Below, in pieces: positions 24,330 to 60,974 of a DNA stretch of 64,000 nucleotides. Both the position numbers and the translations under genes were made by a program. The DNA is from an uncultured Actinomycetota bacterium (GTDB lineage Bacteria; Actinomycetota; Thermoleophilia; Gaiellales; F1-60-MAGs149): assembly GCA_963767885.1 (NCBI GenBank), contig CAVYFW010000003.1, positions 218,628 to 282,627 on the forward strand. Reading direction: 5' to 3'. Each line of letters opens with the position of its first letter. Positions within the stretch are counted from its first letter, which is position 1. The notes below the pieces were generated by a model. That model was not told the origin of the DNA and searched no databases. It was given only the letters and a program-made list of their open reading frames with translations.

Positions 24330-24890
24330 GTGGCTCAGAACGGCGACGCGCTCCTGGACATCCCCGTCGAGACCATCGACGGGGAGGCGACCACCCTGGC
24401 GGTGTACCGCGGCAGCGTCCTGCTCGTGGTCAACGTGGCCTCGAAGTGCGGGCTGACGCCCCAGTACGAGGCGCTCGAGGCGCTCTACCGGCGCTACCGC
24501 GGCGACGGCTTCGTGGTGCTCGGCTTCCCCGCCAACGACTTCGGCGAGCAGGAGCCCGGCACGAATGAGGACATCGCAGCGTTCTGCGCGGACACGTATG
24601 CCGTCGACTTCCCGATGTTCGCGAAGATCGGCGTGCTCGGCGAGGGGCAGCATCCGCTCTACGCCGCGCTGACGCGGCAGCAGCCGATCGCCAGCGGCGA
24701 CAAGCCGAGCTTCCGCGAGAACCTGCGCGGATACGGCATGACGCCGACCGAGGATCCCGACGTGATCTGGAACTTCGAGAAGTTCCTCGTCGGCCGAGAC
24801 GGGGAGGTCACCGGCCGGTTCGCGCCGGACATCCTGCCCGACGATCCAGAGCTCGTGGCCGCCGTCGAGCGCGAGCTCGCCCGGCGCTGA
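24330..24890 (+). CDS. Glutathione peroxidase
   Basis: VVNVASKCGLTPQY, LGFPANDFGEQEPG, WNFEKFLV. The GTG start at 24330 is chosen by homology length. Confidence 0.9.
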   Translation: MAQNGDALLDIPVETIDGEATTLAVYRGSVLLVVNVASKCGLTPQYEALEALYRRYRGDGFVVLGFPANDFGEQEPGTNEDIAAFCADTYAVDFPMFAKIGVLGEGQHPLYAALTRQQPIASGDKPSFRENLRGYGMTPTEDPDVIWNFEKFLVGRDGEVTGRFAPDILPDDPELVAAVERELARR

Positions 24891-40349: not shown

Positions 40350-42048
40350 CTACGCCGAGGGCTCGACGCCGTAGATGCGACGCGCGGCCTCGGGCGAGAC
40401 GTGGCGATCTGCGAGATCCTCGTGCACGAGCCCTGGGTCGCGCTCGGCCGGATCGCCGAAGCCGCCGCCGCCGCCCGTCATCGTGCGGATCACGTCGCCG
40501 CGCCGGAGCGGCATCGTGCTGCACTTGAGCAGCCGTCGCTCGTCGTCGCGACCCGGGTTGACGACGACGATGGGCGGGGTCGCGTCCTGGCCGCCGAAGA
40601 GGCCCCAGGCGGGCGTCCGCGAGCGCTCGAACCAGAGCGACATGACCGCGGCCTCGCCGTCGAGCGTGTACTCGCGGACGACGCCGTTGCCGCCGCGCCA
40701 CTGCCCGGGCCCGCCGGAGTCGGGGCGGAAGCCGTAGTGGGTCATCCGCAGCGGGTACTTCGTCTCCAGCACCTCGATCGGCGAGGTCCTTGAGCGAGCC
40801 GTTGACGTTGTTGATCAGCCCGTCCTGCGCCGTCGGAGCCGTTCCACGCGCCCCAGCCGCCGACGGTCGGCTCGAGGTCGAAGCCACGGCTGGCCGTTGC
40901 GGTGGTCGATGCCCGAGCAGCACGATCACCATCGAGTCGCCGTAGCTCGCGCCGGCCGCCTGCTCGGGCAGCACGTCGGACGAGCGCCTTGACGACGAGG
41001 TCGATCAGCAGGCCGAGCTGCGTGAAGTACCACTGGCACGGCGCGGGCGGCTGGGCGGCGAGCATCGAGCCGGGCCGCACGCGCACCGTGCAGCGGGCGG
41101 AACGCGCCGCCGTTCGGCGGGTTGTCGGGGTTGATCAGGAGCTTGTAGGCGACGCGACAGGCGCGAGATCGCCTGCGCCTCGCCGCAGTTGACCGGGCCC
41201 GGCTGCGGCGTCGTCGGTCTCGGAGAGGTCGATCGTCATCTCGTCGCCGCGCGATCTCGACGGAGAGCCGCACCCAGCACGGCTCGGCCGAGTCGACGCC
41301 GTCGTCGTCCAGGCATCCCTTCGGCGTGGTAGACGCCGTCGGGGATCGCCGCGACGGCCGCCCGCTCGAGGCGCTCCGTCTGCGCGAAGATCTCGTCCCG
41401 CGCCGCGGCGATCGTCTCGGTGCCGTACCGGTCGATGATCGCCGCGCAGGCGCTTCTGCCCGGTGCGCGCGCACGCGATCTGCGCGCCGAGGTCGCCGAT
41501 CGCCGGATAGGAGAAGCGGCTGTTGCGGCCGAGCAGGTCGGTCACGTCCCGGCGCTGGATCGCCTCCCTCGACGACCTTGGTCGGACCGAGCCGGATGCC
41601 CTCCTGGAAGATGCTCGTCGAGTCCATCGGCCCGCCCGGGTCCTTCGCGCCGACGTCGAGCCAGTGCGCGCGGCGACGCGGCGAAGCCGACCAGCTCGTC
41701 GTCGTGGAAGATCGGCCCGAAGACCGTCATGTCGTTGAGGTGCGTGCCGGTCAGGTACGAGTCGTTCATGATCCAGACGTCGCCGGGACGCCACGCCTCG
41801 CGGCCGTACATCTCCTCCGTCAGGCGCGTGCAGATCTCGAGGTTGCCGAGGAAGATCGGCAGGCCCGCCGACTGCCCGAGGACGCGGTGGTCGGCGTCGA
41901 GCAGCGCGACCGAGCAGTCCTTCATCTCGTAGATGACCGGCGTGTAGGCCGAGCGGATCAGCGTCGCGTTCATCTCGTCCGCGGCCGCCGTGAACGCGCT
42001 GCGGATGATCTCGGTCGTGATCGGGTCGACCGCGTTCGTGGCAGCCAT
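40350..42048 (-). pseudogene. hyuB: Hydantoinase B / oxoprolinase family subunit, copy 1; frame broken about ten or more times
   Basis: Co-linear with intact copy 3 but spread over ORFs 41542..42048, 41135..42517, 40926..41627, 40742..41086 and 40350..40772. The first 125 aa are near-identical in pattern (MAATNAVDPITTEIIRSAF..GPIFHDDELVGFAAS). Confidence 0.85.
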
Positions 42049-44124
42049 CAGGCGTCCTCTCCGGTCGCTGATGACGAGCGAGCCGAACGGCGTCGACGCG
42101 CAGGCGTGCGCCGGGCGGGACGACCGTCGTCGCGGTCGTGCTCCGTCGATGATCGCCGGGCCCGTCGAGCACCGCGCCCGGCGCGAGGTCGTCGCGGTGC
42201 ACGATCGTCGTCGGCAGCGCCTGCGCGGTCGAAGACGACCTCCCGCGTACCGCTGCCGGTAGCGTCGTGCGCGTCGACTCCGTGCTGCCGCGCCGGGTCG
42301 GCGCGGCCGAGGTCGCCGAGCGCCGTCGTGCGGACGACGACGAGCTCGACCGGCGCGCCGGGGTTGGCGTGGCCGAAGCGCGTGCTCGTGCGCCTCGTGG
42401 AAGCGGTCGGCGAGCTGCGTCGTCGAAGTCCTCCTCGAGCGGCTCGTCGGCGCCGAGCAGCGGGATCGTCAGGGTGTACTCCTGACCGACGTAGCGGATG
42501 TCGAGCGCATGCTCCACGCGGCCGGTGTCGCGGCGCGATGCCCTCCTCCTCGAGCGAGGCGTCGAAGCCTCCGCCTCGAGCTCGCGCGAGCGTCGCGGCG
42601 AGGTCGGCGTGATCGAGCGCCGCGAGCGGAGTGAAGTAGGCGCGCGCCGAGGTCCTTGCGGATCTCGGTCTCCAGCATCCCCCAGGCGGAGAACGCGCCG
42701 GGGAAGCGGCGGGACGATCGACCTCGCGCGATCTCGAGCTCCCGGGCGAGGAAGACGGCGTGCATCGGCCCGGCGCCGCCGAAGGCGACGAGCGCGAAGT
42801 CGCGCGGCTCGATGCCCTTCTCGACGGTCAGCGTGCGGATCGCCTGCGCCATCTTCGCGTTGATGACGTCGCAGATGCCCTCGGCCAGCTCGATCGGTCT
42901 CGAGGCCGAGCTCGTCGCCGAGCGCCGGCGAGCGCCTGCTCGGCCGCGTCGACGTCGAGCGTCATCTGGCCGCCGGCGAAGTACGGCCGGGTCGATGCGG
43001 CCGAGCGACGAGGTTCGCGTCGGTGACGGTCGGCCGTCGTGCCGCCGCGGCCGTAGCAGGCGGGGCCGGGGTCGGCGCCGGCGCTCTCCGGCCCGACGCG
43101 CAGGCCGCCCGCCTCGGCGTAGGCGAGCGAGCCGCCGCCGGCGCCGATCGTGTGGATGTTGACGACCGACATCAGGAGCGGGAAGCCCTCGAGCGTCGTC
43201 TCGGACGACGACGTCGGGCTTGCCGTCGACGACCAGGCTGACGTCGAAGCTCGTGCCGCCCATGTCGATGCAGATCAGGTTCGGCCGGTCGAGCATGCGC
43301 GCCAGCGCGACGCCGCCCATCGTCCCGCCGACCGGCCCGGAGAGCAGGGTCTGCAGCGAGCAGCTCGCGCGCCGACTGCGGCCGTGACGATGCCGCCGCA
43401 CGACTGCATCACGTGCAGCGGCACGGACAGCCCGCGGCGCTGCAGCTCGCTCTCGAGCCGCTCGAGGTAGCGGCGCACGACCGGCGCGGTGTAGGCGTCG
43501 ATGACCGCCGACGAGGTGCGCTCGTACTCGCGCCACTCGCGCGCGACGCGGTGCGAGAGGGAGACGGTGATCGCCGTCGAGCTCCTCGAGCAGGATCTCC
43601 TCGGCGCGCAGCTCGTGCGCCGGGTTGACGTAGGAGAACAGGAAGCGCGACGGCGACGGCGCCGAAGCCCTCCTCCCGCGCGCGCCGCGCCGCGGCGCGG
43701 ACGGCGTCCTCGTCCAGCGGCTCGAGCTCCTCGCCCGCCCAGTTCGAGCCGGCCGCCGATCTCGACGATGTCGCTGCGCGGGCACGAGCGGCGTCGGCTT
43801 GCGGTAGTGGATGTCGTAGAGGCGCAGTGCGGTTGCCGCGGGCGATGTGGTAGACGTCGCCGGCGCCGCGCGTCGCCAGCAGCAGCACCGCTCGCCGCGG
43901 CGCTGGAGGAAGGCGTTCAGGCCCTGCGTCGTGCCGTGCACCGTGAACGCCGATCTCGGCGGGCGTGTCGACGACGGCGCCGAGCGCCGCGAAGACGCCC
44001 TCGGTGAGGTCGCTTCGGCGTCGTCGACGACTTGCCCGCGCGGTACGTCCCGCTGCTCCTCGTCGTAGGCGACGACGTCCGTGAACGTGCCGCCGATGTC
44101 CATCGAGACCCGGTAGCGGCTCAT
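42048..44124 (-). pseudogene. hyuA: Hydantoinase A / oxoprolinase family subunit, copy 1; frame broken about a dozen times
   Basis: MSRYRVSMDIGGTFTDVV at ATG 44124. In-frame islands (FTVHGTTQGLNAFLQRRGER, FLFSYVNPAHELRAEEIL, LQTLLSGPVGGTMG..IDMGGTSFDVSLVVDG, AKMAQAIRTLTVEKGIEPRDFALVAFGGAGPMH) alternate with off-frame stretches of ORF 42469..44283. The stop overlaps the hyuB start (TGATG). Confidence 0.85.
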
Positions 44125-44366
44125 CCGGCCACCGCTCCGGCCCGGCGTGCTGCCGCGCACCTGCGCAGGAACGCACGCGGCCCGACCCGACGCCGCTCGC
44201 TGCGCGTCCGTCGCGGGCTCGTTCCGGCCTGGATCGCTAGCTCGTTCATGACACGCGCCTCTCCACCTGGGACGGCTCGGCATTCCTGCGCGGGTCAGTC
44301 TAGTAGCGGAGATACGAGAACACCAGACGTCCGCGATCGAGCGCGTCGTCTATGCTTGGACGGCGG

Positions 44367-44924
44367 ATGAACGCGGTGCTGGGACACGTCGGACGCCAGC
44401 TGCGCGCTCTGCGCACGGCCCGGCGGATCTCCCTCGCCGACCTGGCGCAGGACGTCGGCTACTCCGAGGGGTACCTCTCGCAGGTCGAGAACGGCGCCAC
44501 CGTGCCCGCCCTCAGCCTCCTCGCCGCCATCGCGGCGTCGCTGGGCACCGACATGACCGCCTTCTTCCCGCCGGAGGACTACCCGCGCGTGCACGTCTCG
44601 CGCGCCGGCGACCCGCACAAGGTGCGCATCGCGCCGAACGCGCGCGAGGAGTACACCCTGCTGACCCCGCGCGACCCGCAGGCGACGTTCACGGCGCTCG
44701 TCCACCAGCTCTACCCCACGGACGAGACCGTCCAGTACCGCCACGTCGGCGAGCGCTTCGCCCTCATCCTCGACGGCGAGGTCAGCCTCCGGATCGGCGG
44801 CGAGCAGTACGACCTCGGCGTCGGCGACACGATCCACTACTCCTCGCACGCCGAGCACGAGCTGCGCGTGACCTCGAACGGACCCGCCGAGATCCTATGG
44901 TTCGTCAGCCCGGCGATCATCTAG
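44367..44924 (+). CDS. XRE-family HTH + C-terminal cupin regulator (1a)
   Basis: RQLRALRTARRISLADLAQDVGYSEGYLSQVENG plus a cupin domain (HVGERFALILDGEVSL..GDTIHY). Start chosen by co-linearity with paralogue 59836... Divergent from hyuA copy 1. Confidence 0.85.
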   Translation: MNAVLGHVGRQLRALRTARRISLADLAQDVGYSEGYLSQVENGATVPALSLLAAIAASLGTDMTAFFPPEDYPRVHVSRAGDPHKVRIAPNAREEYTLLTPRDPQATFTALVHQLYPTDETVQYRHVGERFALILDGEVSLRIGGEQYDLGVGDTIHYSSHAEHELRVTSNGPAEILWFVSPAII

Positions 44925-44950
44925 CCGACCCGAGCTCGCTGCTCCTGCGC

Positions 44951-45469
44951 ATGGGCAGCCGGCTGCGAGCTCGCCGCCGGGAGCTGGGACGCACCCTCGC
45001 CGAGGTCGCCGGCCCGGCCGACGTCTCGGTCTCCTACCTGTCCGCGGTCGAGAAGGGCACCAACCAGCCGTCCCTGCAGGTGCTGGTGCGGATCGTCCAC
45101 GCGCTCGACCTGCGGATCGCCGACGTGCTGCGAGCCGAGGGCCAGAACCACGTGCGGGTCGCGACGGTCACCGACGCCGCGCCCGGTGGCAAGGTCATCT
45201 CGCACGCCGGCCTGCAGCTCGAGATCGTCGCGCTGACCGCGCGCCCCGGCGACGCCGGGGCGTGCCCCGTGACGCTCGACGAGCGCGACCTCGCGGTCGT
45301 CGTCCACCGGGGTGCGATCGTCGTCTCGGTCGACGGCGACGACCACGAGCTCCACACCGCAGACGCGCTGGACGCCCGTCTGCCCGGCGCCGTCGTCTGG
45401 CGCGTGCTCGGCGACGAGCCGGCGACGACGATCTGGGCGTCGGGACGGGCCTTGACCGCCGGGATCTGA
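44951..45469 (+). CDS. Second XRE-family HTH + cupin-like regulator (1b)
   Basis: SRLRARRRELGRTLAEVAGPADVSVSYLSAVEKG plus a beta-rich C-terminal domain; paralogue of 60405... Confidence 0.8.
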   Translation: MGSRLRARRRELGRTLAEVAGPADVSVSYLSAVEKGTNQPSLQVLVRIVHALDLRIADVLRAEGQNHVRVATVTDAAPGGKVISHAGLQLEIVALTARPGDAGACPVTLDERDLAVVVHRGAIVVSVDGDDHELHTADALDARLPGAVVWRVLGDEPATTIWASGRALTAGI

Positions 45470-46754: not shown

Positions 46755-48477
46755 CGGCGGGCGGTGAACGTCTCGGGGCTCACGGTGACGCCGTACTGCT
46801 CGAGCGCCTCCTCGACCGTCACGTAGCCGTTGCGCACGTCGTCGGCGACGGCCTCGGGGTCGCGCTCGTGCGGATCGCCGTAGCCGCCGCCCGTGGCCGT
46901 GACGATGCGCACGAGGTCGCCGGCGCCGAGCGGGTGCCGCGCGACCTTCCCGAAGCGCTGCTCGGAGCCGTCCGCCGTGATCACGTCGACGTGGTTCGTC
47001 GAGCCGTTCTGCGCCGCCGTGCAGGCCCCACGCGGGAAACGCGTGGCGGCCGGCGGTCGAGGTGACGATCCAGCCGTCGCGCAGGATGCGGTACTCGCGG
47101 ATGCAGCCCGGGACCGCCGCGCTGCCGGCCCGCGCCGGCGCCGATCGGGTCGAGGCCGAAGCGCTCGACGCGCAGGCCGAAGCGTGCCTCGGCGACCTCC
47201 GCCTGCGTCACGAACGTCTCGCCGTCGAGGCAGCAGAACTGGCCGACGACGCCGTCGCGCCGACGGGTTCGCGCCCCAGCCGCCGACCTCCGGCTCGACG
47301 AGCACGACGAAGTCGCCGGTGTCGGCGTGCGGGCCGGCGACGATCGTGCCGCAGACCGACGCCATGTGGCCCGCGCCGCAGCCGGTCCGGGCAGGTGCGG
47401 CGCCATCGCCCGCCAGATCAGCTCCGCGCCGAAGGTCAGCGACTCCCAGTAGATCGAGCAGGGCGCGGGCCGCTCGGCGGAGAGGATCGATCCCGGCGGG
47501 CAGATCACCCGCAGCGGCGCGAAGGAGCCGTGGTTCGCCGCCGCGCTCGGCGTTCGTCAGCGCCTTGAACGCCACCTGCGCGGCGGAGAGCAGGCCGGTC
47601 GAGGTGTTGTTCACGGGCCCGGCGACCTGCGGGTGCGAGCCGCGTGAAGTCGCAGATGAACTCGTCGTCGGTGATCGTGACCTTCACCCGCACCTCGAAC
47701 GGGCCGTCTGCCGAGGCCGTCGTCGTCGATGTAGTCGACCGCGTCGAACGTCGCCCTTCGGCAGCTTCGCCAGCTCGAGCCGCGCGATCGTCTCGCCGTG
47801 CTCGATCAGCGCCTCGATCGTCTCGAGCACCGACGTCGACGCCGTACTTGTCGCAGACCTCGCGGAACGCGCGCTCGCCGACGCGCATCGCCGCCGCCTG
47901 CGCCATCAGGTCGCCGATCGTCTGCTCGGGCGTGCGCACGTTCGACGCGATCAGGTCGACGAGCGCCTCGTTCCGCTCGCCGCGGCTCCAGATCTTGACG
48001 TTCGGGAACTGGAGCCCCTCCTGGTAGATCTCGGTGGAGTCGGTCGTGAAGGAGCCGGGCGACATGCCGCCGACCTCGGTCCAGTGCGCCTTCGACACCG
48101 CGAACGCGAGCGAGCTGGCCGTCGACGAAGATCGGCGCGACGAGCGACACGTCCGAGAGGTGCGAGCCGCCGCCGATGTACGGGTCGTTCGTGATCACGA
48201 TGTCGCCGGGCTCGAGCCGGCCCTCCCACTTCGTCCAGCACGGCCTCGACGCTCGTCGTCAGCATGCCGATGAAGCCGGTCACGCCCTGGCCCTGCGTGA
48301 CCAGCCGCGCCGCTCGCGTCGGTCAGCCCGGTCGCGAAGTCGAGCACCTCGTAGATGATCGGGCTCATCGAGGTGCGCAGCAGCGTCGACGAACATCTCG
48401 TCGCCGACGGCGGCGAGGCGCGTCCTTGATGACCTCGATCGTGAACGGGTCGCCGCGTCGTCTTGCTCGGTCTGCAT
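46751..48477 (-). pseudogene. hyuB: Hydantoinase B / oxoprolinase family subunit, copy 2 (a subfamily divergent from copies 1 and 3); many frameshifts
   Basis: Fragments: MQTEQDDAA..LAAVGDEMFV (ATG 48477), ITNDPYIGGGSHLSDVSLVAPIFVDG (ORF 47806..48198), EIYQEGLQFPNVKIW (ORF 47505..), VVLVEPEVGGWGA and IVTATGGGYGDPHERDPEAVADDVRNGYVT (ORF 46751..47614). Confidence 0.8.
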
Positions 48478-48479
48478 CC

Positions 48480-50559
48480 TCAGGCTCCGGTGCGGACGAT
48501 GATGTTGCCGAAGCCGGTCGACGGTCGCCGTACATGCCGGGCGGCACGAGCGTCGTCGTCGCGGTCTCCTCGATCGCGGCGGGCCCGTCGATCTCGGCGC
48601 CCGGCGCCGAGCGCCGCCCGGTCGTAGACGGCCGCCTCGACCCGGCCGCGCTCGTCGAAGTCGATCGACGCGGCTGCCCGTGCGCGCCGGCGTCGCCGTC
48701 GCCGCCGGCGCGATCTCCCGCAGCGGCGGCTTGGCGCACCGTGCCGTACGCCGCGTGAGCCGGAACGTCACGAGCTCCGCCGGGCACGTCGAGCCGGAAC
48801 GTGTAGAGACGCTCGTGCGCGTCGTCGAAGCGGCGCCGCATCTCCGTCGCGCGTCGTCTCGTCGAGCGGCGCCGTCGGGAATCGGCACGGTCACCGTGTG
48901 CTCCTGCCCAGGTAGCGCATGTCCGCCTGGCGCACGAGGCGCACGTCGTCCGCGGCGACCCGCTCGCTCGCGAACGTCGCCGGCATCAGCTCCTCGAGCT
49001 CCGCCCAGATGGCGCCGGTGCGGTCCGGCGTCTGCGCGCGCGTCGAGCCGCATCAGCGACGTGCGCACGACGTCGTGGCGGATGTCGCTCATCAGCATGC
49101 CCGAGCGCCGAGAAGTGGCCCGGCGCCGTCGGCACGATCACCTCCGGGCACCTTCAGCTCCGCCGCCAGGAGCGCGCCGTGCAGCGGGCCGCCGCCGCCG
49201 CAGGCGACGAGCGCGAACTCTCGCGGGTCGCGGCCGCGCCGGACCGAGACCAGCCGGAGCAGGTTGACCATGCTCGCGTTGGCGATGCGCAGGATGCCGC
49301 GCGCCGTGTCCTCGAGCGACGGTGCCGAGCCGCTCGCCGAGCGCGGCCGATCGCGGCCCGCGGCGAGCTCCTCGTCGAGCGGCATGCGGCCGCCCATGAA
49401 GGCGACGGCGCCGATCCGACCGGTGACGAGGTTCGCGTCCGTCAGCGTCGCCTCCGTGCCGCCGCGCCCGTAGCACGCGGGGCCCGGATCGGCGACCGCC
49501 GAGTGCGGGCCGACCTTCAGCGAGCCCGCCGGGTCGATCCAGGCGATCGAGCCGCCGGCCATGCCGATCTCGATGATGTCGACGACCGGCACCTTCAGCG
49601 GATAGCCGGCGTTCCGCGGGGTCGCGGTCGATGTGGTAGTCGGCCGTCAGGCGCACCTCGCCGCCCTCGACCAGGCTCGACTTCGCGGTCGTGCCGCCGA
49701 CGTCGAAGGTGATCAGGTTCGGCCGCCCGATCGCCGCGCCGACGACGGCGGCGCCGATGATGCCGCCGACCGGCCCGGACTCGACGAGGTTGATCGGCGC
49801 CTGCCGGCGGCGACGTCGAAGCGCGACAGCCCGCCGTTCGACTGCATCGCGAAGTGCGTGTCGCGGTCGATGCCCGCGGCGTGCAGCCGCTCCGAGAGCC
49901 GCGTCAGGTACTGGCGGACGGTCGGCTTCACGTAGGCGTCGAGCACCGTCGTCGACGTGCGGTCGTACTCGCGCCACTCGCCGGACAGCTCGTGCGAGAC
50001 CGACAGCGTCGCACGTCGGGCCACTCCTCGGTGACGATCGCCGCCGCGCGCCGCTCGTGCTCCGGGTTGGCGTAGGCGTGCAGGAGGCAGATCGCGACCG
50101 CCTCGACGCCCGCGTCGCGCAGCGCGCGCACGGCCGCCCGGCGCACGCTCTCCTCGTCGAGCGGCGCCGACCACGCGCCCCTGGTAGTCGAGCCGCTCCT
50201 CCACCTCGAAGCGCAGGTGGCGGGGCACGAACGCGCTGCGGCTTGCGGAAGACGAAGTTGTAGAGGTCGGGCCGGTTGCCCTTCGCGATCTCGAGCACGT
50301 CCCGGAAGCCCTGCCGTGGTGATCAGGCCGACGCGCGCGCCCTTGCGCTCGGTCAGCGCGTTGATCACGACGGTCGTGCCGTGCGCCAGGAACGCCGACG
50401 TCGTCGAGCTCCGTCTGCCCGACGGCGTCCAGGACGCCCTCCTCGAAGGCCCGCGGCGTCGTCGCCGCCTTGGCCAGCGCCGACGTCGCCCGTCTCCTCG
50501 TCGAGGTGGACGAGGTCGGTGAACGTCCCGCCGATGTCGACGGCCACGCGCAGGGACAT
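48480..50559 (-). pseudogene. hyuA: Hydantoinase A / oxoprolinase family subunit, copy 2; many frameshifts
   Basis: MSLRVAVDIGGTFTDLV at ATG 50559. Other fragments: FLAHGTTVVINALTERKGARVGLITTAG, VLEIAKGNRPDLYNFVFRKPQ, FDVGGTTAKSSLVEGGEV, PVVDIIEIGMAGGSIAW, and REFALVACGGGGPLHGALLAAELKVP, spread across four frames. Confidence 0.8.
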
Positions 50560-55512: not shown

Positions 55513-55878
55513 TCACGACGCCTCCGCCTCGACCGCCAGCACGACGTCGTAGACCGCGCCGCGCACGGCCGCGTCGAAGTCGCCTTCGACGAGCTCTGCG
55601 AGCATCGGCCGGGTCGCCTCCCGCAGCGGGTTCGCGAGCCACCCCTCGTAGGCGCCGGCGTCGCGCCAGAGCGCCGTCACGAGGATCGGCGCACCCGGCT
55701 CGCGCGGCACCTGGAGCTCTGCCGACAGGCAGCCCTCCTGTCGCAGCGCGGTCTCGAGGATCTCCTCTCGACGGTACAGACCGACGATGTCGTCGCTGCC
55801 GCCCGCGCGGGGCGGCAGGTAGAGAACGCTGCGGATCAACGCCGGCTCGCTTCCGGGTCGGAATTCCTGTTCGCGCAT
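55513..55878 (-). CDS. Small ABM/Dabb-like protein, 121 aa (tentative)
   Basis: ATG 55878 inside ORF 55513..56061. ILVTALWRDAGAYEGWLANPLRE resembles ABM-domain proteins. It lies between hyuB copy 3 and the M24 gene. Confidence 0.55.
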   Translation of the reverse strand: MREQEFRPGSEPALIRSVLYLPPRAGGSDDIVGLYRREEILETALRQEGCLSAELQVPREPGAPILVTALWRDAGAYEGWLANPLREATRPMLAELVEGDFDAAVRGAVYDVVLAVEAEAS

Positions 55879-55948
55879 CCTACTTTCAAACCAACAGGAA
55901 TCGCAAGGGGCGGCGACCCCGTCCCGTCGGTCGCTGTCGCGATCCCGG

Positions 55949-57634
55949 TCACCGGCCGTCCCAGCCGTACGTCGAGCGCGCCTGCTCGCGGCTGACGACG
56001 CCGTCGCGCACGTCGCGGGCGATCGCCTCCTGCTGCCGCTCCGCCGGATCGCCGTAGCCACCGCCGCCGCCCGTCAGCCCGCGGATCACGTCGCCCCGCC
56101 CGACCCGTAGCCGCGCGGCCTTGAGCAGGTGGCGCTCGTCCTCGCGGCCGGGGTTGACGACGACGTCGGGCCCGGCGCCGTCAGCGCCCCCGGCGAGGCC
56201 CCAGGCGGGCGTGCGCGAGCGCTCCCACCAGAGCGACACGTACGCCTCCTCGCAGTCGAAGGCGAACTCGCGGATGACGCCGTGGCCGCCGCGGAACCGT
56301 CCCGCTCCGCCCGAGTCCGGACGGATGCGGTACTCCGTCATGCGCATCGGCAGGCGCGTCTCGAGCACCTCGATCGGCAGGTCCTTCATCCCGGCGTTGA
56401 CGCTGTTGATGAGCGCGCTCTCGCCGTCGCCGGTCGACCACCCGCCCCAGCCGCCGGTCGTCGGCTCGATGTGGAAGAAGCCGCCACCCGTGCGGTGGTC
56501 GAGGCCGGCGACCATGAAGATCATGGAGTCGCCGTAGCTCGCCGCCGCGGCTCGCTCCGGCAGCACCGGGGCGAGCGCCTTGACGACGAGGTCGATGAGC
56601 AGGCCGAGCGGCGTGAAGTACCAGGCACACGGCGCCGGCGCCTCGGCGGCCAGCACGGAGCCGCGGCGCACGCGCACCTCGAGGGCGCGGAAGGAGCCGC
56701 CGTCGGTGGGCCGCGCGGGGTCGACGAGCAGCTTGAAGGCGACGCGGCAGGCGGAGATCGCCTGCGCCTCGCCGCAGTTCACGGGCCCGCCGCGCAGGTC
56801 GCTGGACTCGCCCAGGTCGACGATCATGCGGTCGCCGGCGACCTCCACGCGCACGCGCACCCAGACGGGCTCGCCGAGGCGGATGCCGTCGTCGTCGAGA
56901 CAGCCCTCGGCGGTGTACACGCCGTCGGGGATCGCCGCGACGATCTCCCGCTCGAGCCGCTCCGTCTGCTCGTAGATGCGGTCGCGCGCGGCGGTCACGG
57001 TCGGCATGCCGAAGCGGTCGATGATCGCGCCGAGCCGCTGCTCGCCGATGCGCACGCAGGCCATCTGCGCCTGCAGGTCGCCGAGCATCGGCTGCGGGAA
57101 GCGGGAGTTGCGCGACAGCAGGTCGAGCATGTCGCGGCGGGGCACGCCGCCCTCGACGAGCCGCGTCGGCCCGAGGCGCAGGCCCTCCTGGAAGATCTCC
57201 GTGGAGTCCATGGGCGCGCCGGGGTCCTTCGCTCCGACGTCGAGCCAGTGCGCGCGCGAGGCCGCGAAGCCGACGAGGGCCTCGTCGTGGAAGATCGGCC
57301 CGAAGACCGTGACGTCGTTGAGGTGGGTGCCGGCGAGGTAGGAGTCGTTCATGATCCAGACGTCACCGGGTCGCCACGCCTCGCGGCCGTACCACTCCTC
57401 CGTCAGACGCGTGCAGATCTCGAGGTTGCCGAGGAAGATCGGCAGGCCGGACGACTGGCCGAGGACGCGGTGGTCGGCGTCGAGCAGCGCGACCGAGCAG
57501 TCCTTCAGCTCGTAGATGATCGGCGTGTACGCGGACCGGATCAGCCCGGCGTTCATCTCGTCGGCGGCGGACGAGAACGCGCTCCGGATCACCTCGGTGG
57601 TGATCGGGTCGACGGCGATGCTGGTGGCGGCCAT
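55949..57634 (-). CDS. hyuB: Hydantoinase B / oxoprolinase family subunit, copy 3, intact (561 aa)
   Basis: Uninterrupted ORF. DPITTEVIRSAF, NDSYLAGTHLNDV, GGWGG, GGGGYGDP. Confidence 0.9.
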   Translation of the reverse strand: MAATSIAVDPITTEVIRSAFSSAADEMNAGLIRSAYTPIIYELKDCSVALLDADHRVLGQSSGLPIFLGNLEICTRLTEEWYGREAWRPGDVWIMNDSYLAGTHLNDVTVFGPIFHDEALVGFAASRAHWLDVGAKDPGAPMDSTEIFQEGLRLGPTRLVEGGVPRRDMLDLLSRNSRFPQPMLGDLQAQMACVRIGEQRLGAIIDRFGMPTVTAARDRIYEQTERLEREIVAAIPDGVYTAEGCLDDDGIRLGEPVWVRVRVEVAGDRMIVDLGESSDLRGGPVNCGEAQAISACRVAFKLLVDPARPTDGGSFRALEVRVRRGSVLAAEAPAPCAWYFTPLGLLIDLVVKALAPVLPERAAAASYGDSMIFMVAGLDHRTGGGFFHIEPTTGGWGGWSTGDGESALINSVNAGMKDLPIEVLETRLPMRMTEYRIRPDSGGAGRFRGGHGVIREFAFDCEEAYVSLWWERSRTPAWGLAGGADGAGPDVVVNPGREDERHLLKAARLRVGRGDVIRGLTGGGGGYGDPAERQQEAIARDVRDGVVSREQARSTYGWDGR

Positions 57635-59674
57635 CAGGCCTCCTTCCCGATCCGCATCAGCAGCGCCCCGAGGGCATCCACCACGAGCGTGGTGCCCGGC
57701 GGGACGACCGTCGTCGCGGTCTGCTCGTTGACGATGGCCGGCCCGTCGACCGCGGTGCCGGGGGCGAGATGGGAGCGCTCGAGGATCTGCGTGTCACGCG
57801 GGGCGCGGCCGAAGACGGCGGCGCGGCGAGGGGCGCTGCCGTTGCCGGAGACGACGTCGGGTGGCGCCGGTGCGGCGCGGCCGAGGTCGCCGAGCGCCGT
57901 CGTGCGGACGACCACGAGCTCGACGGGCGCGCCGGGGTTCGCGTGCCCGTAGCGGGTCTCGTGCGCGTGGTGGAAGCGCTCCTCCAGGCGGTCGAGGAAG
58001 GCGTCGCGCTGCGGGTCGTCGGCGCCGTCGATGGGGATCGTCAGCGTGTACTCCTGGCCCACGTAGCGGACGTCGACCGGCATGCAGCAGCAGCCGCGTG
58101 TCGGCCGGCACGCCCTCCCGATCGAGCGCTGCGACGCCGTCGCCCTCGAGCGCGGCGCACGCGGCGGCGAGCTTGTCCAGCGGCGCCTCGCGCGCGACGG
58201 CGTAGAACGGCTGGCTGAAGTCCTGGCGGATCTGCGTCTGCAGCATGCCCCAGGCGGAGAACGCGCCCGGGTCGGCCGGGACGATGACCTCCGCGATCTC
58301 GAGCTCGCGGGCGAGGAAGGCGGCGTGCATCGGGCCGGCGCCGCCGAACGCGACGAGCGAGAAGTCGCGCGGCTCGATGCCCTGCTCCACCGTGAGCGTG
58401 CGGATCGCCTGCGCCATCCGCGCGTTGATGACGTCGAGGATGCCCTCGGCCAGCTCCTCCACGCCGAGTCCGAGCTCGCCCGCGAGGTCGGCGACCGCGG
58501 CGCGGGCCGCCCCGACGTCGAGCGTCATCGTGCCGCCGGCGAAGTGCTCCGGGTCGACGCGGCCGAGCACGAGGTTCGCGTCCGTCACGGTCGGCCGCGT
58601 CCCACCGCGGCCGTAGCAGGCAGGGCCCGGGGCGGCCCCGGCGCTCTCCGGGCCGACGCGGAGCCCGCCGGCCTCCGAGCGAGCCAGCGAGCCGCCGCCC
58701 GCGCCGATGGTGTGGATGTTGACGATGCTCATGAGCAGCGGGAAGCCCTCGAGCGAGGTCTCCGAGGCGACGTCGGGCTGTCCGTCGACGACCAGCGAGA
58801 CGTCGAACGAGGTGCCGCCCATGTCGATGCCGATGAGGTTCGGGCGCTGCAGTGCCTCCGACAGCGCGACGAGCCCCATGGTGCCGCCGACGGGTCCGGA
58901 GAGCAGCGTCTGCAGCGGCCGGTCGCGCGCGCTCTCCGCGGTGAGGATGCCGCCGTTCGACTGCATCACGTGGAGCGGCACGGCGAGGCCGCGGTCGCGC
59001 ATCTCGTCCTCGAGCCGCCGCAGGTAGCGGCGGACGACGGGTGCCGTGTAGGCGTCGAGCACCGTCGAGGCGGTGCGCTCGTACTCGCGCCACTCCCGTG
59101 CGACGCGGTGCGAGAGCGAGACGGGCACCTCGCCCAGCTCCTCGCGCAGGATCTCCGCCGCGCGCAGCTCGTGGGCCGGATCGACGTAGGAGAAGAGGAA
59201 GGCGATCGCCACGGAGCCGAAGCCCTCGTCGCGCACCCGCTGCGCCGCCGCCCGGATCGCCGCCTCATCGAGCGGGGCGAGCTCCTCGCCGGTGTAGGTG
59301 AGGCGACCGGGGATCTCGACGATGTCGCCGAGCGGGACGAGCGGCTCGGGCTTCTCGTAGTGCAGGTCGTAGAGGCGGTGGCGGTCGCCGCGCGCGATGT
59401 GGTAGACGTGGCCGGCGCCGGCCGTGGCGAGCAGCAGCACACGCTCGCCGCGGCGCTGCAGGAAGGCGTTCAGCCCCTGCGTCGTGCCGTGCACCGTGAA
59501 GTCGATCTCGGCGGGGGAGTCGATCACCTGCGCGAGTCCCGCGAGCACGCCCTCCGCGAGGTCGTGGGGGGTCGTGGACGACTTGCCGGCGGCGTAGCGG
59601 CCACGCTCCGTGTCGTAGGCGACGACGTCGGTGAACGTGCCGCCGATGTCCATCGAGACCCTGTACGCGCCCAT
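57634..59674 (-). pseudogene. hyuA: Hydantoinase A / oxoprolinase family subunit, copy 3; single frameshift near 58085
   Basis: ORF 57794..59674 (MGAYRVSMDIGGTFTDVV..) carries about 530 good residues. The C-terminus VDVRYVGQEYTLTIP..LMRIGKEA is in ORF 57634..58083. RBS AGGAGG precedes ATG 59674. Confidence 0.9.
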
Positions 59675-59785
59675 CCGGCCTCCTACTCGCCGTTCCGCTC
59701 CTGCTTGATGACTCCCGGCAGAAGAGGAAGGGCACTGCCGCGAGATCCCGGATTCGAGCTGTGCATTACTCCCTGGGTGAAGATA

Positions 59786-59805
59786 CGTTCTCTGAGAAGA
59801 GAACG
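59786..59805. promoter_or_regulatory. Perfect 20-bp palindrome CGTTCTCT-gaga-AGAGAACG; candidate XRE operator in the hyuA-3 / regulator divergent promoter
   Basis: 8-bp arms with a 4-nt spacer, 30 nt upstream of ATG 59836. A TAGACT -10-like hexamer (59823-59828) lies 7 nt before that ATG. Confidence 0.4.
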
Positions 59806-59835
59806 CAAGCGCCTCGCTGAGCTAGACTCGCGGCG

Positions 59836-60393
59836 ATGGACTCGGTGGTGATGGACATCGGTCGGCAGCTGCGCGCGCTGCGCCGCGCCCGTCGCCGGAC
59901 GCTCGAGGAGCTCGCCGCCGAGACCGGCTTCACCAGGAGCTACCTGTCCCAGATCGAGACGGGCGAGGCGACGCCGAGCCTCGGAGCGCTCGCCGCGATC
60001 GCGGCTGCGCTCGGCACCGAGCTCGCAGCCTTCTTCCCGCTCCGGGCCGGCCCGGCAGTCCACGTCTCGCGCGCCGGCGACCCGGTGAAGCTGCGCGTCG
60101 AGCCGAACTCGCACGAGGAGTACGTCGTCCTCGGCGGACGCCGGCCGGGGGCCGCCTTCACCGCCGTGCTCGCCCGCTACTTCCCGGGCGAGTCGGTGGG
60201 CCGCAACAGCCACCTCGGAGAGCGCTTCGCCCTCGTGTTGTCAGGTGACGTCGCGATCAACGTCGGCGGCGAGCGGCGGACGCTGGCCCCGGGCGAGTGG
60301 CTGCACTACGCCGCGCAGCCGGAGGACACGCTCGAGGTCGTCTCCCACGGACCTGCGGAGGTGCTTTGGCTGGTCGTGCCGGCGATGATCTGA
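59836..60393 (+). CDS. XRE-family HTH + cupin regulator (3a)
   Basis: RQLRALRRARRRTLEELAAETGFTRSYLSQIETG plus a cupin domain (HLGERFALVLSGDVAI..GEWLHY). Paralogue of 44367..44924. Confidence 0.85.
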   Translation: MDSVVMDIGRQLRALRRARRRTLEELAAETGFTRSYLSQIETGEATPSLGALAAIAAALGTELAAFFPLRAGPAVHVSRAGDPVKLRVEPNSHEEYVVLGGRRPGAAFTAVLARYFPGESVGRNSHLGERFALVLSGDVAINVGGERRTLAPGEWLHYAAQPEDTLEVVSHGPAEVLWLVVPAMI

Positions 60394-60404
60394 ACGGAGA
60401 CGGG

Positions 60405-60930
60405 ATGGCGCTCGCCGCGAGCGTCGGCAGCCGCCTGCGCGCCCGCCGCGCGGCACTCGGCTGGACGCTCGCGGAGACGGCCGCCCAGGCCGACGTCTCG
60501 GTCTCCTACCTCTCCTCGATCGAGGTCGGACGCAGCGTGCCGTCGCTGCCGATCCTCGCGCGGGTCTCGACGACGCTCGGCCTCTCGCTCAACGAGGCGC
60601 TGCGCGGCCTCGGTCGCAACGTCGTCGACGGCGGGCGGCTCGACAGCGGCGCGCCGGGAGTCGAGCGCACCTCCAGCCCGTCCCTGGAGCTGGAGATCGG
60701 CACGCTCGTCGCAGACCCGGGCAGCGCCGGCCCGAGCCCTGTGCCGGTCAGCGGCGGCGAGCTCTTCGTCTACGTCGTCGCCGGTGCACTCGAGGTGGAG
60801 CTCGACGGGACGCCGCACATGCTCCGGCGGGGCGACTCGATCGACGCGGAGGCGCCCGGCGTCCGCCGCCTACCGCGTTCCGGACGAGGAGCGCTCGGTC
60901 AGCGTCTGGTCGACCGTGCCGGGCTCCTGA
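60405..60930 (+). pseudogene. Second XRE-family HTH + cupin-like regulator (3b), one frameshift near 60850
   Basis: ATG 60405 follows GGAG. SRLRARRAALGWTLAETAAQADVSVSYLSSIEVG. The C-terminus ASAAYRVPDEERSVSVWSTVPGS is in another frame, with the stop at 60928-60930. Confidence 0.75.
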
Positions 60931-60974
60931 CCTCAGCACGATCCTGACAGCCGACCTCGAGGGGTCGGCATAGC

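Follow-up and report, generated by a model that had tools for sequence, protein, structure and literature searches.

Genes at the locus

In the window (the whole 64-kb stretch of DNA that was analysed), hyuA3 and the gene of regulator 3a lie back to back on either side of a 161-bp intergenic region. Regulator 3a (59836-60393, plus strand) is a protein of 185 aa with an XRE helix-turn-helix (HTH) domain and a cupin domain, as seen from its profile matches (HTH_31, 3.6e-15; HTH_3, 4.8e-14; Cupin_2, 6.1e-08). Its tandem partner on the same strand, regulator 3b (ca. 60405-60947), has an XRE HTH domain and a weak cupin signal; the start of 3b is approximate, and the gene calls of orthologs use an overlapping upstream start. 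A similar pair, regulators 1a and 1b, is found in module 1. The initial annotation had described these proteins as XRE-cupin regulators. The description is correct for 3a and 1a, which show clear Cupin_2 matches (7.7e-13 for 1a), whereas the Cupin_2 match of 3b was below the cut-off and 1b gave none.

On the minus strand, hyuA3 (57649-59674; Hydant_A_N and Hydantoinase_A) is followed by hyuB3 (55949-57634), an intact gene with a Hydantoinase_B profile match, by a small ABM-like ORF (55513 to ca. 55880) and by an M24/Creatinase_N gene (55457-54306). The frame of hyuA3 changes near 58079-58242. Compared with an intact ortholog, residues 1-532 were aligned in one frame with 78% identity and residues ca. 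482-675 in another frame with 42% identity, and no Hydant_A_C match was obtained in hyuA3. The frame change is either that of a real pseudogene or an assembly error. Hence, the statement that the hyuAB genes of module 3 are essentially intact applies to hyuB3 but not to hyuA3. Module 1 (40368-44124) and module 2 (46790-50556) contain many frame changes. Both regulator pairs, 3a/3b and 1a/1b, are divergent from hyuA/hyuB. Separately, an AT-rich patch 5' of the ABM-like ORF contains TTGCGA-18 nt-TAGGAT (55877-55906, minus strand), a possible promoter inside module 3. A member of the ABM-like gene family is also the divergent partner of the regulators at two related loci (L019 and L020), where it lies behind TTGACA-18-TACTTT.

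A protein search retrieved four close relatives of the locus (L002, L003, L005 and L095; 92-99% identity) and about 20 independent orthologs (43-66% identity), the latter from soil, other metagenomes and MAGs named Gaiellaceae. The gene order of the window, with the regulator pair divergent from hyuA-hyuB-(ABM)-M24, is found in L086 and L093. The divergent gene of L004, L085, L088 and L091 codes for a periplasmic binding protein; at these loci, hyuAB is located downstream of the regulators. In the window, the regulator gene adjoins its candidate target genes and has the intergenic region in common with them; the same applies to L086, L093 and L001. A b-type paralog directly follows the a-type regulator in every ortholog locus with downstream DNA covered. 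Such tandem a and b genes are present in the window at 59836-60947 and 44367-45469, and in L004, L085, L086, L088, L090, L091, L093, L094 and others. This arrangement suggests that the a- and b-type regulators form an obligate pair, possibly acting as a heterodimer. In many gene calls, the a- and b-type genes overlap by ca. 28 nt. The b-type proteins have a weak cupin signal or none, and their recognition helix (SVSYLS[SA]IE) varies less than the a-type helix.

Predicted promoters on the two strands

The hexamers TAGACT (59823-59828, plus strand) and TATGCT (44351-44356, plus strand) are candidate -10 elements of regulators 3a and 1a, respectively. They are located 7 nt before the ATG of 3a (59836) and 10 nt before the ATG of 1a (44367), and re-reading of the letters confirmed both hexamers and both distances given in the initial annotation. 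Of the 20 orthologs with at least 47% identity, 19 have a TAnnnT whose distance to the start codon is 6-10 nt (mostly 6-8 nt); L093 was scored from a GTG three codons upstream of its called start. Across the window, TAnnnT occurs with a background frequency of 4e-4 per position. No credible ribosome-binding site was seen before the a-type regulator in any of the 20 orthologs, and none of GGAG, GAGG and AGGA occurs before regulator 3a. A conserved -35 element of the regulator promoter was not recognisable. The conserved TAnnnT, together with the missing ribosome-binding site, indicates that the mRNA of regulator 3a would be leaderless, a prediction that is well supported and forms the best-supported part of the present finding. 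The earlier wording, leaderless or near-leaderless, can thus be divided: 3a is predicted to be leaderless, while the 10-nt gap of regulator 1a predicts a leader of a few nucleotides. L019 and L020, the nearest relatives of 1a, share TATGCTTGG with a gap of 6 nt.

The upstream regions were aligned on the regulator start, and a second conserved unit appeared, which reads AA[CG]ATA, 19 nt, [GA]CAA[CG] on the plus strand. In module 3, this unit corresponds to the AGATA and GCAAG that flank the inverted repeat described below; read on the minus strand, these flanks form a -10 and a -35 element, which the initial annotation had overlooked. The predicted hyuA3 promoter is TTGCGT-17 nt-TATCTT on the minus strand, with the -35 hexamer at 59808-59803 and the -10 hexamer at 59785-59780. 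The -35 hexamer is aligned with TTGnnn in 12 orthologs, and TATGTT, TATCTT or TACTTT is found in orthologs at the spacing of 17-18 nt from it. With a spacer of 17 nt, the hexamers are TTGCGT and TATGTT in L086, TTGCCT and TATGTT in L093, TTGCAT and TATGTT in L001, TTGCAT and TATCTT in L006, TTGTCT and TATGTT in both L004 and L085, TTGACA and TAAGTT in both L013 and L014, TTGACA and TAACTT in L011, and TTGCGT and TACATT in L018. With a spacer of 18 nt, they are TTGACG and TATGTT in L019 and TTGACA and TACTTT in L020. In L020, the -10 precedes an AGGAGG that is separated by 8 nt from the start codon (ATG) of the divergent gene. L016 also keeps the hexamers at the fixed spacing of 17-18 nt, and the -10 of the close relative L095, TATCCT, still fits TAnnnT. 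Thus, the hexamers and their spacing are kept among the orthologs, and the sequence of the spacer varies.

In three orthologs (L093, L019 and L020), the minus-strand unit is 10-12 nt nearer to the start of the regulator. This shift relative to the regulator start suggests that the unit is an independent promoter of the divergent gene and not a part of the regulator promoter. TTGCGT and TATCTT match the consensus of E. coli at only 7 of 12 positions. A strict sigma-70 consensus scan with a cut-off of 9 of 12 detected no promoter in the intergenic regions of module 1 and module 3, so that the promoter calls are based on conservation rather than on the strength of a consensus match. The predicted start of hyuA3 transcription is near 59773, which would give a leader of ca. 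100 nt. This leader ends with a ribosome-binding site, AGGAGG (59684-59679, minus strand), 4 nt before the ATG (59674), and the block is conserved in the hyuA-divergent orthologs.

The inverted repeat between the predicted promoters

The sequence at 59786-59805 is CGTTCTCTGAGAAGAGAACG, directly preceded by AGATA, in agreement with the initial annotation, which had taken it for a perfect 20-bp palindrome. A repeat finder gave two arms of 8 nt, CGTTCTCT (59786-59793) and AGAGAACG (59798-59805), which are 100% complementary and 4 nt apart. The perfection of the arms was thus confirmed, but the GAGA centre is not self-complementary, so the element is an 8-4-8 inverted repeat rather than a 20-bp palindrome. 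The centres of the two arms are 12 bp apart. Within the element, there are also a perfect 5-1-5 palindrome, TTCTC-T-GAGAA (59788-59798), and a direct repeat, GAGAA-GAGAA. The whole 17-nt spacer of the predicted hyuA3 promoter (59786-59802) is taken up by the repeat, which also extends over three bases of the -35 element. With the +1 of the regulator promoter at 59836, the repeat spans about -50 to -31 of that promoter, including the -35 position, and the -10 of the regulator is found 17 nt downstream of the repeat.

The G+C content is 72.9% in the window, 61% in the hyuA3/regulator 3a intergenic region and 50% in the repeat element. There are 78 perfect inverted repeats with 8-nt arms and spacers of 0-10 nt in the window, almost all of them GC-rich; arms with a GC content of 50% or less were found in only two of the 78, the present repeat and one at 24769-24786 (GGAACTTC-GA-GAAGTTCC). 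The second was rejected as a comparable case, as it lies inside the coding motif WNFEKF(L) of a glutathione peroxidase and is probably determined by the coding sequence. The repeat at 59786-59805 is, therefore, the sole non-coding AT-rich perfect repeat with 8-nt arms in 64 kb. A perfect 8-nt-arm repeat was contained in 3.0% of the trials in which the 161-nt intergenic region was shuffled, and 0.06% of the trials reached such a repeat when the 29-bp promoter core was shuffled. The repeat is real and modestly unlikely by chance.

These values bear on the main rival to an operator, namely that the repeat is a by-product without a protein partner, generated by slippage (GAGAA-GAGAA) in a T/C- or G/A-rich spacer, and that the regulators bind elsewhere or to a conserved core, CTCWGAGAA, only. 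The element lies in a purine/pyrimidine low-complexity tract (GAGAAGAGAA) in which slippage could have made the second arm; the nested direct repeat, a 1-nt change in the length of the tract in L003 and the ca. 3% of shuffled intergenic regions that give such a repeat are all in line with this origin. On the other hand, the uniqueness of the repeat in 64 kb and its exact placement across the promoter elements, together with the 0.06% obtained for the core, argue against a by-product, as does the fact that XRE-cupin regulators normally use palindromes beside their own genes.

We considered whether the repeat could function as RNA, that is, as a hairpin with an 8-bp stem and a GAGA (GNRA-type) loop in the 5' leader of the regulator mRNA, or as its complement in the hyuA3 leader. 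The folding energy of -15.9 kcal/mol (z = -3.6 vs shuffles) is favourable for this. However, judging from the conserved -10 elements, both transcripts are predicted to start outside the repeat (the regulator at ca. 59836 and hyuA3 at ca. 59773), a comparison of 59500-60000 with Rfam yielded nothing beyond a meaningless match (E = 0.94), no U-tract is present at the repeat, and the orthologs have neither the hairpin nor compensatory changes. An RNA function thus appears highly improbable. Since the flanking genes are divergent, no terminator is needed at the repeat; a terminator-like match at 59817-59805 (minus strand), a 5-bp stem between the divergent genes, was dismissed.

The 8-4-8 dyad was kept only in the relatives with at least 92% identity (92-99%). 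It is identical in L002, L005 and L095; in L003, a contig from noisy long reads, the 4-nt spacer is longer by one base. In these four relatives, 16 intergenic columns are variable and none of the 16 arm positions is changed, which counts for an operator; however, we estimated that zero arm changes would occur by chance in ca. 19% of cases, which counts against it. The substitutions and indels of the four relatives cluster at 59810-59820, between the repeat and the -10 of the regulator. From the -10 to the -35 of the minus strand, the close relatives show two variable columns, one of which keeps TAnnnT, the other being a 1-nt spacer indel in L003.

The dyad was absent among the orthologs of 43-66% identity. 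L086, L093 and L001 (61-66% identity), which have the gene order of the window and a near-identical recognition helix, are without a comparable dyad, and this counts against an operator. The part of the repeat common to these three is only the core CTCWGAGAA(C/G) of the nested palindrome, which is displaced by 2 nt within the spacer as compared to the window; the loss of the arms while the core is kept would be expected of a by-product. Two other orthologs, by contrast, possess perfect dyads of their own in the spacer of the divergent promoter: CATCCTCT-N7-AGAGGATG in L092 (upstream of 2059) and AGTTTGC-N5-GCAAACT in L014 (upstream of 2501). Independent perfect dyads at the equivalent place count for an operator and against a by-product. 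The dyads of L092 and L014 are unrelated in sequence, and L014 also has GGCAAAC-TTA-GTTTGCC overlapping the -10. Overall, the spacers of 14 orthologs, with the window excluded, were not significantly enriched in dyads (Fisher p = 0.31), which counts against an operator and is what a by-product would predict. A search of the 20 ortholog upstream regions for a shared dyad motif (half-sites 3-5 nt long and 0-14 nt apart) gave nothing above the shuffle level, a further point against an operator; GTTC-N10-GAAC, which occurs in two loci, is at chance level. Taken together, an origin of the repeat as a by-product of a low-complexity spacer is conceivable but somewhat doubtful. The dyad sequence itself appears to be lineage-specific, the orthologs retaining the promoter frame and not the arms.

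At the start of the recognition helix, where all ca. 20 orthologs read T-[A/T/S/P/E]-G-YLSQIE, regulator 3a reads GFTRSYLSQIE. The R-S codons of 3a are at 59932-59937, and this change is common to the close relatives that carry the dyad. In our own alignment, the two residues correspond to what we take to be base-contacting positions of the 434 repressor. Such a change at the start of the recognition helix fits a lineage-specific site. The spacer dyad differs between the window, L092 and L014, and that of the window co-occurs with the R-S change of 3a; a binding site whose sequence turns over within a fixed promoter frame would give this pattern, though we regard such turnover as unlikely. If it did take place, an a/b heterodimer might place the invariant helix of the b-type regulator on the conserved core and the variable helix of the a-type on the lineage-specific flanks.

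The near invariance of the a-type recognition helix among the orthologs, against a site that is not invariant, may also be read as a sign that another dimeric regulator, for instance a global one of nitrogen or carbon use, binds the repeat instead of the adjacent XRE-cupin pair. There is a precedent in Corynebacterium, where creatine and hydantoin-type genes are reported to be under the global regulator AmtR (PMC8864220). However, when the window was searched for CGTTCTC-N6-GAGAACG, one exact match was found, and the number of sites with two or three mismatches was near chance (11 observed vs 5.6 expected); hence, the 64-kb window contains no second copy or near copy of the site, which also weighs against the operator reading. 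The half-site AGAGAACG at 55821 was rejected as a second site, since it lies inside the ABM-like coding sequence and in a conserved S-V/L-L-Y peptide. Local control by the adjacent gene is, moreover, the rule for the XRE-cupin family. The repeat also does not seem to fit the orientation of the LexA box (CGAAC-N4-GTTCG), and the LexA/Cheo box, CIRCE and HAIR were considered and rejected by their sequences. Control by such a different regulator, therefore, seems quite improbable.

The initial annotation had also proposed that the counterpart of the repeat in module 1, at 44310-44321, is the homologous site with 12 nt missing. The string AGATACGAGAAC is literally present there (plus strand), without a dyad partner, and is a candidate counterpart of the module-3 site. 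However, a global alignment of the two intergenic regions left the two sites unpaired. The best local alignment, whose score was reached by 6% of shuffles, pairs GAGATACGAGAAC of module 1 with GAGA-A-GAGAAC in the right half of the module-3 element. AGATA precedes the regulator start by 56 nt in module 3 and by 58 nt in module 1, as compared with 58-61 nt in most of the closer orthologs, so module 1 shows no 12-nt shortening, and a deletion would require a compensating insertion. In an ungapped alternative, TGGTGT-17-TAGACT (44325-44297, minus strand) is in register with TTGCGT-17-TATCTT, and GTTCTC is found at the matching place. Three alignments of module 1 with module 3 thus compete (the 12-nt gap, AGATA with AGATA ungapped, and GAGAAC with the right arm ungapped), and none is significant. 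The 12-nt gap is not supported; it appears to be a coincidence of strings among three equally weak alignments and is to be dropped. In all three, module 1 has no partner for the dyad, and its promoter hexamers are poorer. This state of module 1 is consistent with its decayed hyuAB genes but does not by itself imply that the two are causally linked.

Two further elements were seen in the intergenic region of module 1. A GC-rich near-palindrome of 22 nt, GACGTCCGCGATCGAGCGCGTC (79% complementary; 44326-44347), lies upstream of the -10 of regulator 1a and over the -35 position; it could be a chance product in GC-rich DNA or a module-1 site. A direct repeat, TCGCGGGCTCGTTC and TCGCTAGCTCGTTC, 23 nt apart (44211-44247), is located in the presumed hyuA1 leader and includes CGTTC, a string found in the module-3 arm as well.

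A candidate operator and its likeness to known systems

Based on these observations, the 161-bp hyuA3/regulator 3a region would contain two back-to-back promoters with the inverted repeat at their junction. TAGACT (plus strand) would drive a leaderless mRNA that encodes both 3a and 3b, and TTGCGT-17-TATCTT (minus strand) would drive hyuA3-hyuB3 and probably also the ABM-like and M24 genes. We propose that the two 8-bp arms are contacted by a dimer of the XRE-cupin regulator, made up of 3a, of 3b or of one of each, that the bound dimer would block RNA polymerase at both promoters, and that a small molecule in the cupin domain would free the regulator and thereby induce the operon.

The initial annotation had named the palindrome the obvious operator of the adjacent regulators. 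Its place is indeed right: the repeat lies beside the regulator genes, in the classical position for a repressor of two divergent promoters, where it overlaps core promoter elements of its target (both promoters being predicted only), and the 12-bp spacing of the arm centres suits an HTH dimer. It is not obvious, however, given that L086, L093 and L001 lack the dyad despite their near-identical recognition helix. We therefore describe the repeat as an ordinary but well-placed candidate repressor site, for which the operator reading is plausible. That it serves as the operator of the adjacent XRE-cupin regulators, repressing both promoters, is in our judgement evenly balanced between true and false.

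If true, the control of a hydantoinase/oxoprolinase-type operon from a little-studied, uncultured, high-GC actinobacterial lineage related to Gaiellaceae would be mapped in concrete and testable terms: one site, a pair of overlapping divergent promoters and a regulator mRNA without a leader. The advance would be modest, because XRE-cupin regulators are already known as local repressors that act on palindromes beside their own genes. The comparative result is more useful: the promoter frame is conserved over ca. 20 loci, which fixes the start codons and promoter positions of the family, and the comparison also shows that the dyad itself is lineage-specific.

The regulator promoter resembles the leaderless promoters of actinobacteria. 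In M. tuberculosis, TANNNT -10 elements are centred 7-12 bp upstream of mapped starts, without a conserved -35 (Cortes et al. 2013, PMC3898074). Similarly, TAGACT is centred ca. 10.5 bp before the A of the ATG, without a ribosome-binding site. Whereas the starts of that study were mapped, the 3a promoter is predicted from sequence comparison, and unlike the strictly leaderless case, the 10-nt gap of regulator 1a probably corresponds to a short leader.

The XRE-cupin factors of Pseudomonas (ErfA, PsdR, PauR, PA4987 and others) are local repressors whose dimers bind palindromes in the intergenic region beside their own gene, with a consensus that differs by member (Trouillon et al. 2021, PMC7901475). 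Like them, regulator 3a combines an XRE HTH with a cupin sensor and is encoded beside, and divergently from, a small catabolic operon; the adjacent intergenic region contains a palindromic candidate site placed to repress the target and probably the regulator too, and site sequences vary between the members of the family. E. coli PuuR is a further local repressor of the XRE-cupin type. The present locus differs from the Pseudomonas systems in having a conserved tandem a and b pair instead of a single gene, in its high-GC actinobacterial host (the nearest named relatives being Gaiellaceae MAGs) and in the predicted leaderless regulator mRNA; moreover, the site in the window is a candidate predicted from sequence, and its dyad is not conserved among orthologs. 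A last comparison is with the operators of phages 434 and lambda, which are bound by HTH dimers of the Cro/cI fold. Unlike these, the module-3 site is single and not one of three, and its context is not that of a phage; like them, it is a short inverted repeat, the centres of its half-sites being separated by about one helical turn (12 bp), and it overlaps predicted elements of divergent promoters.
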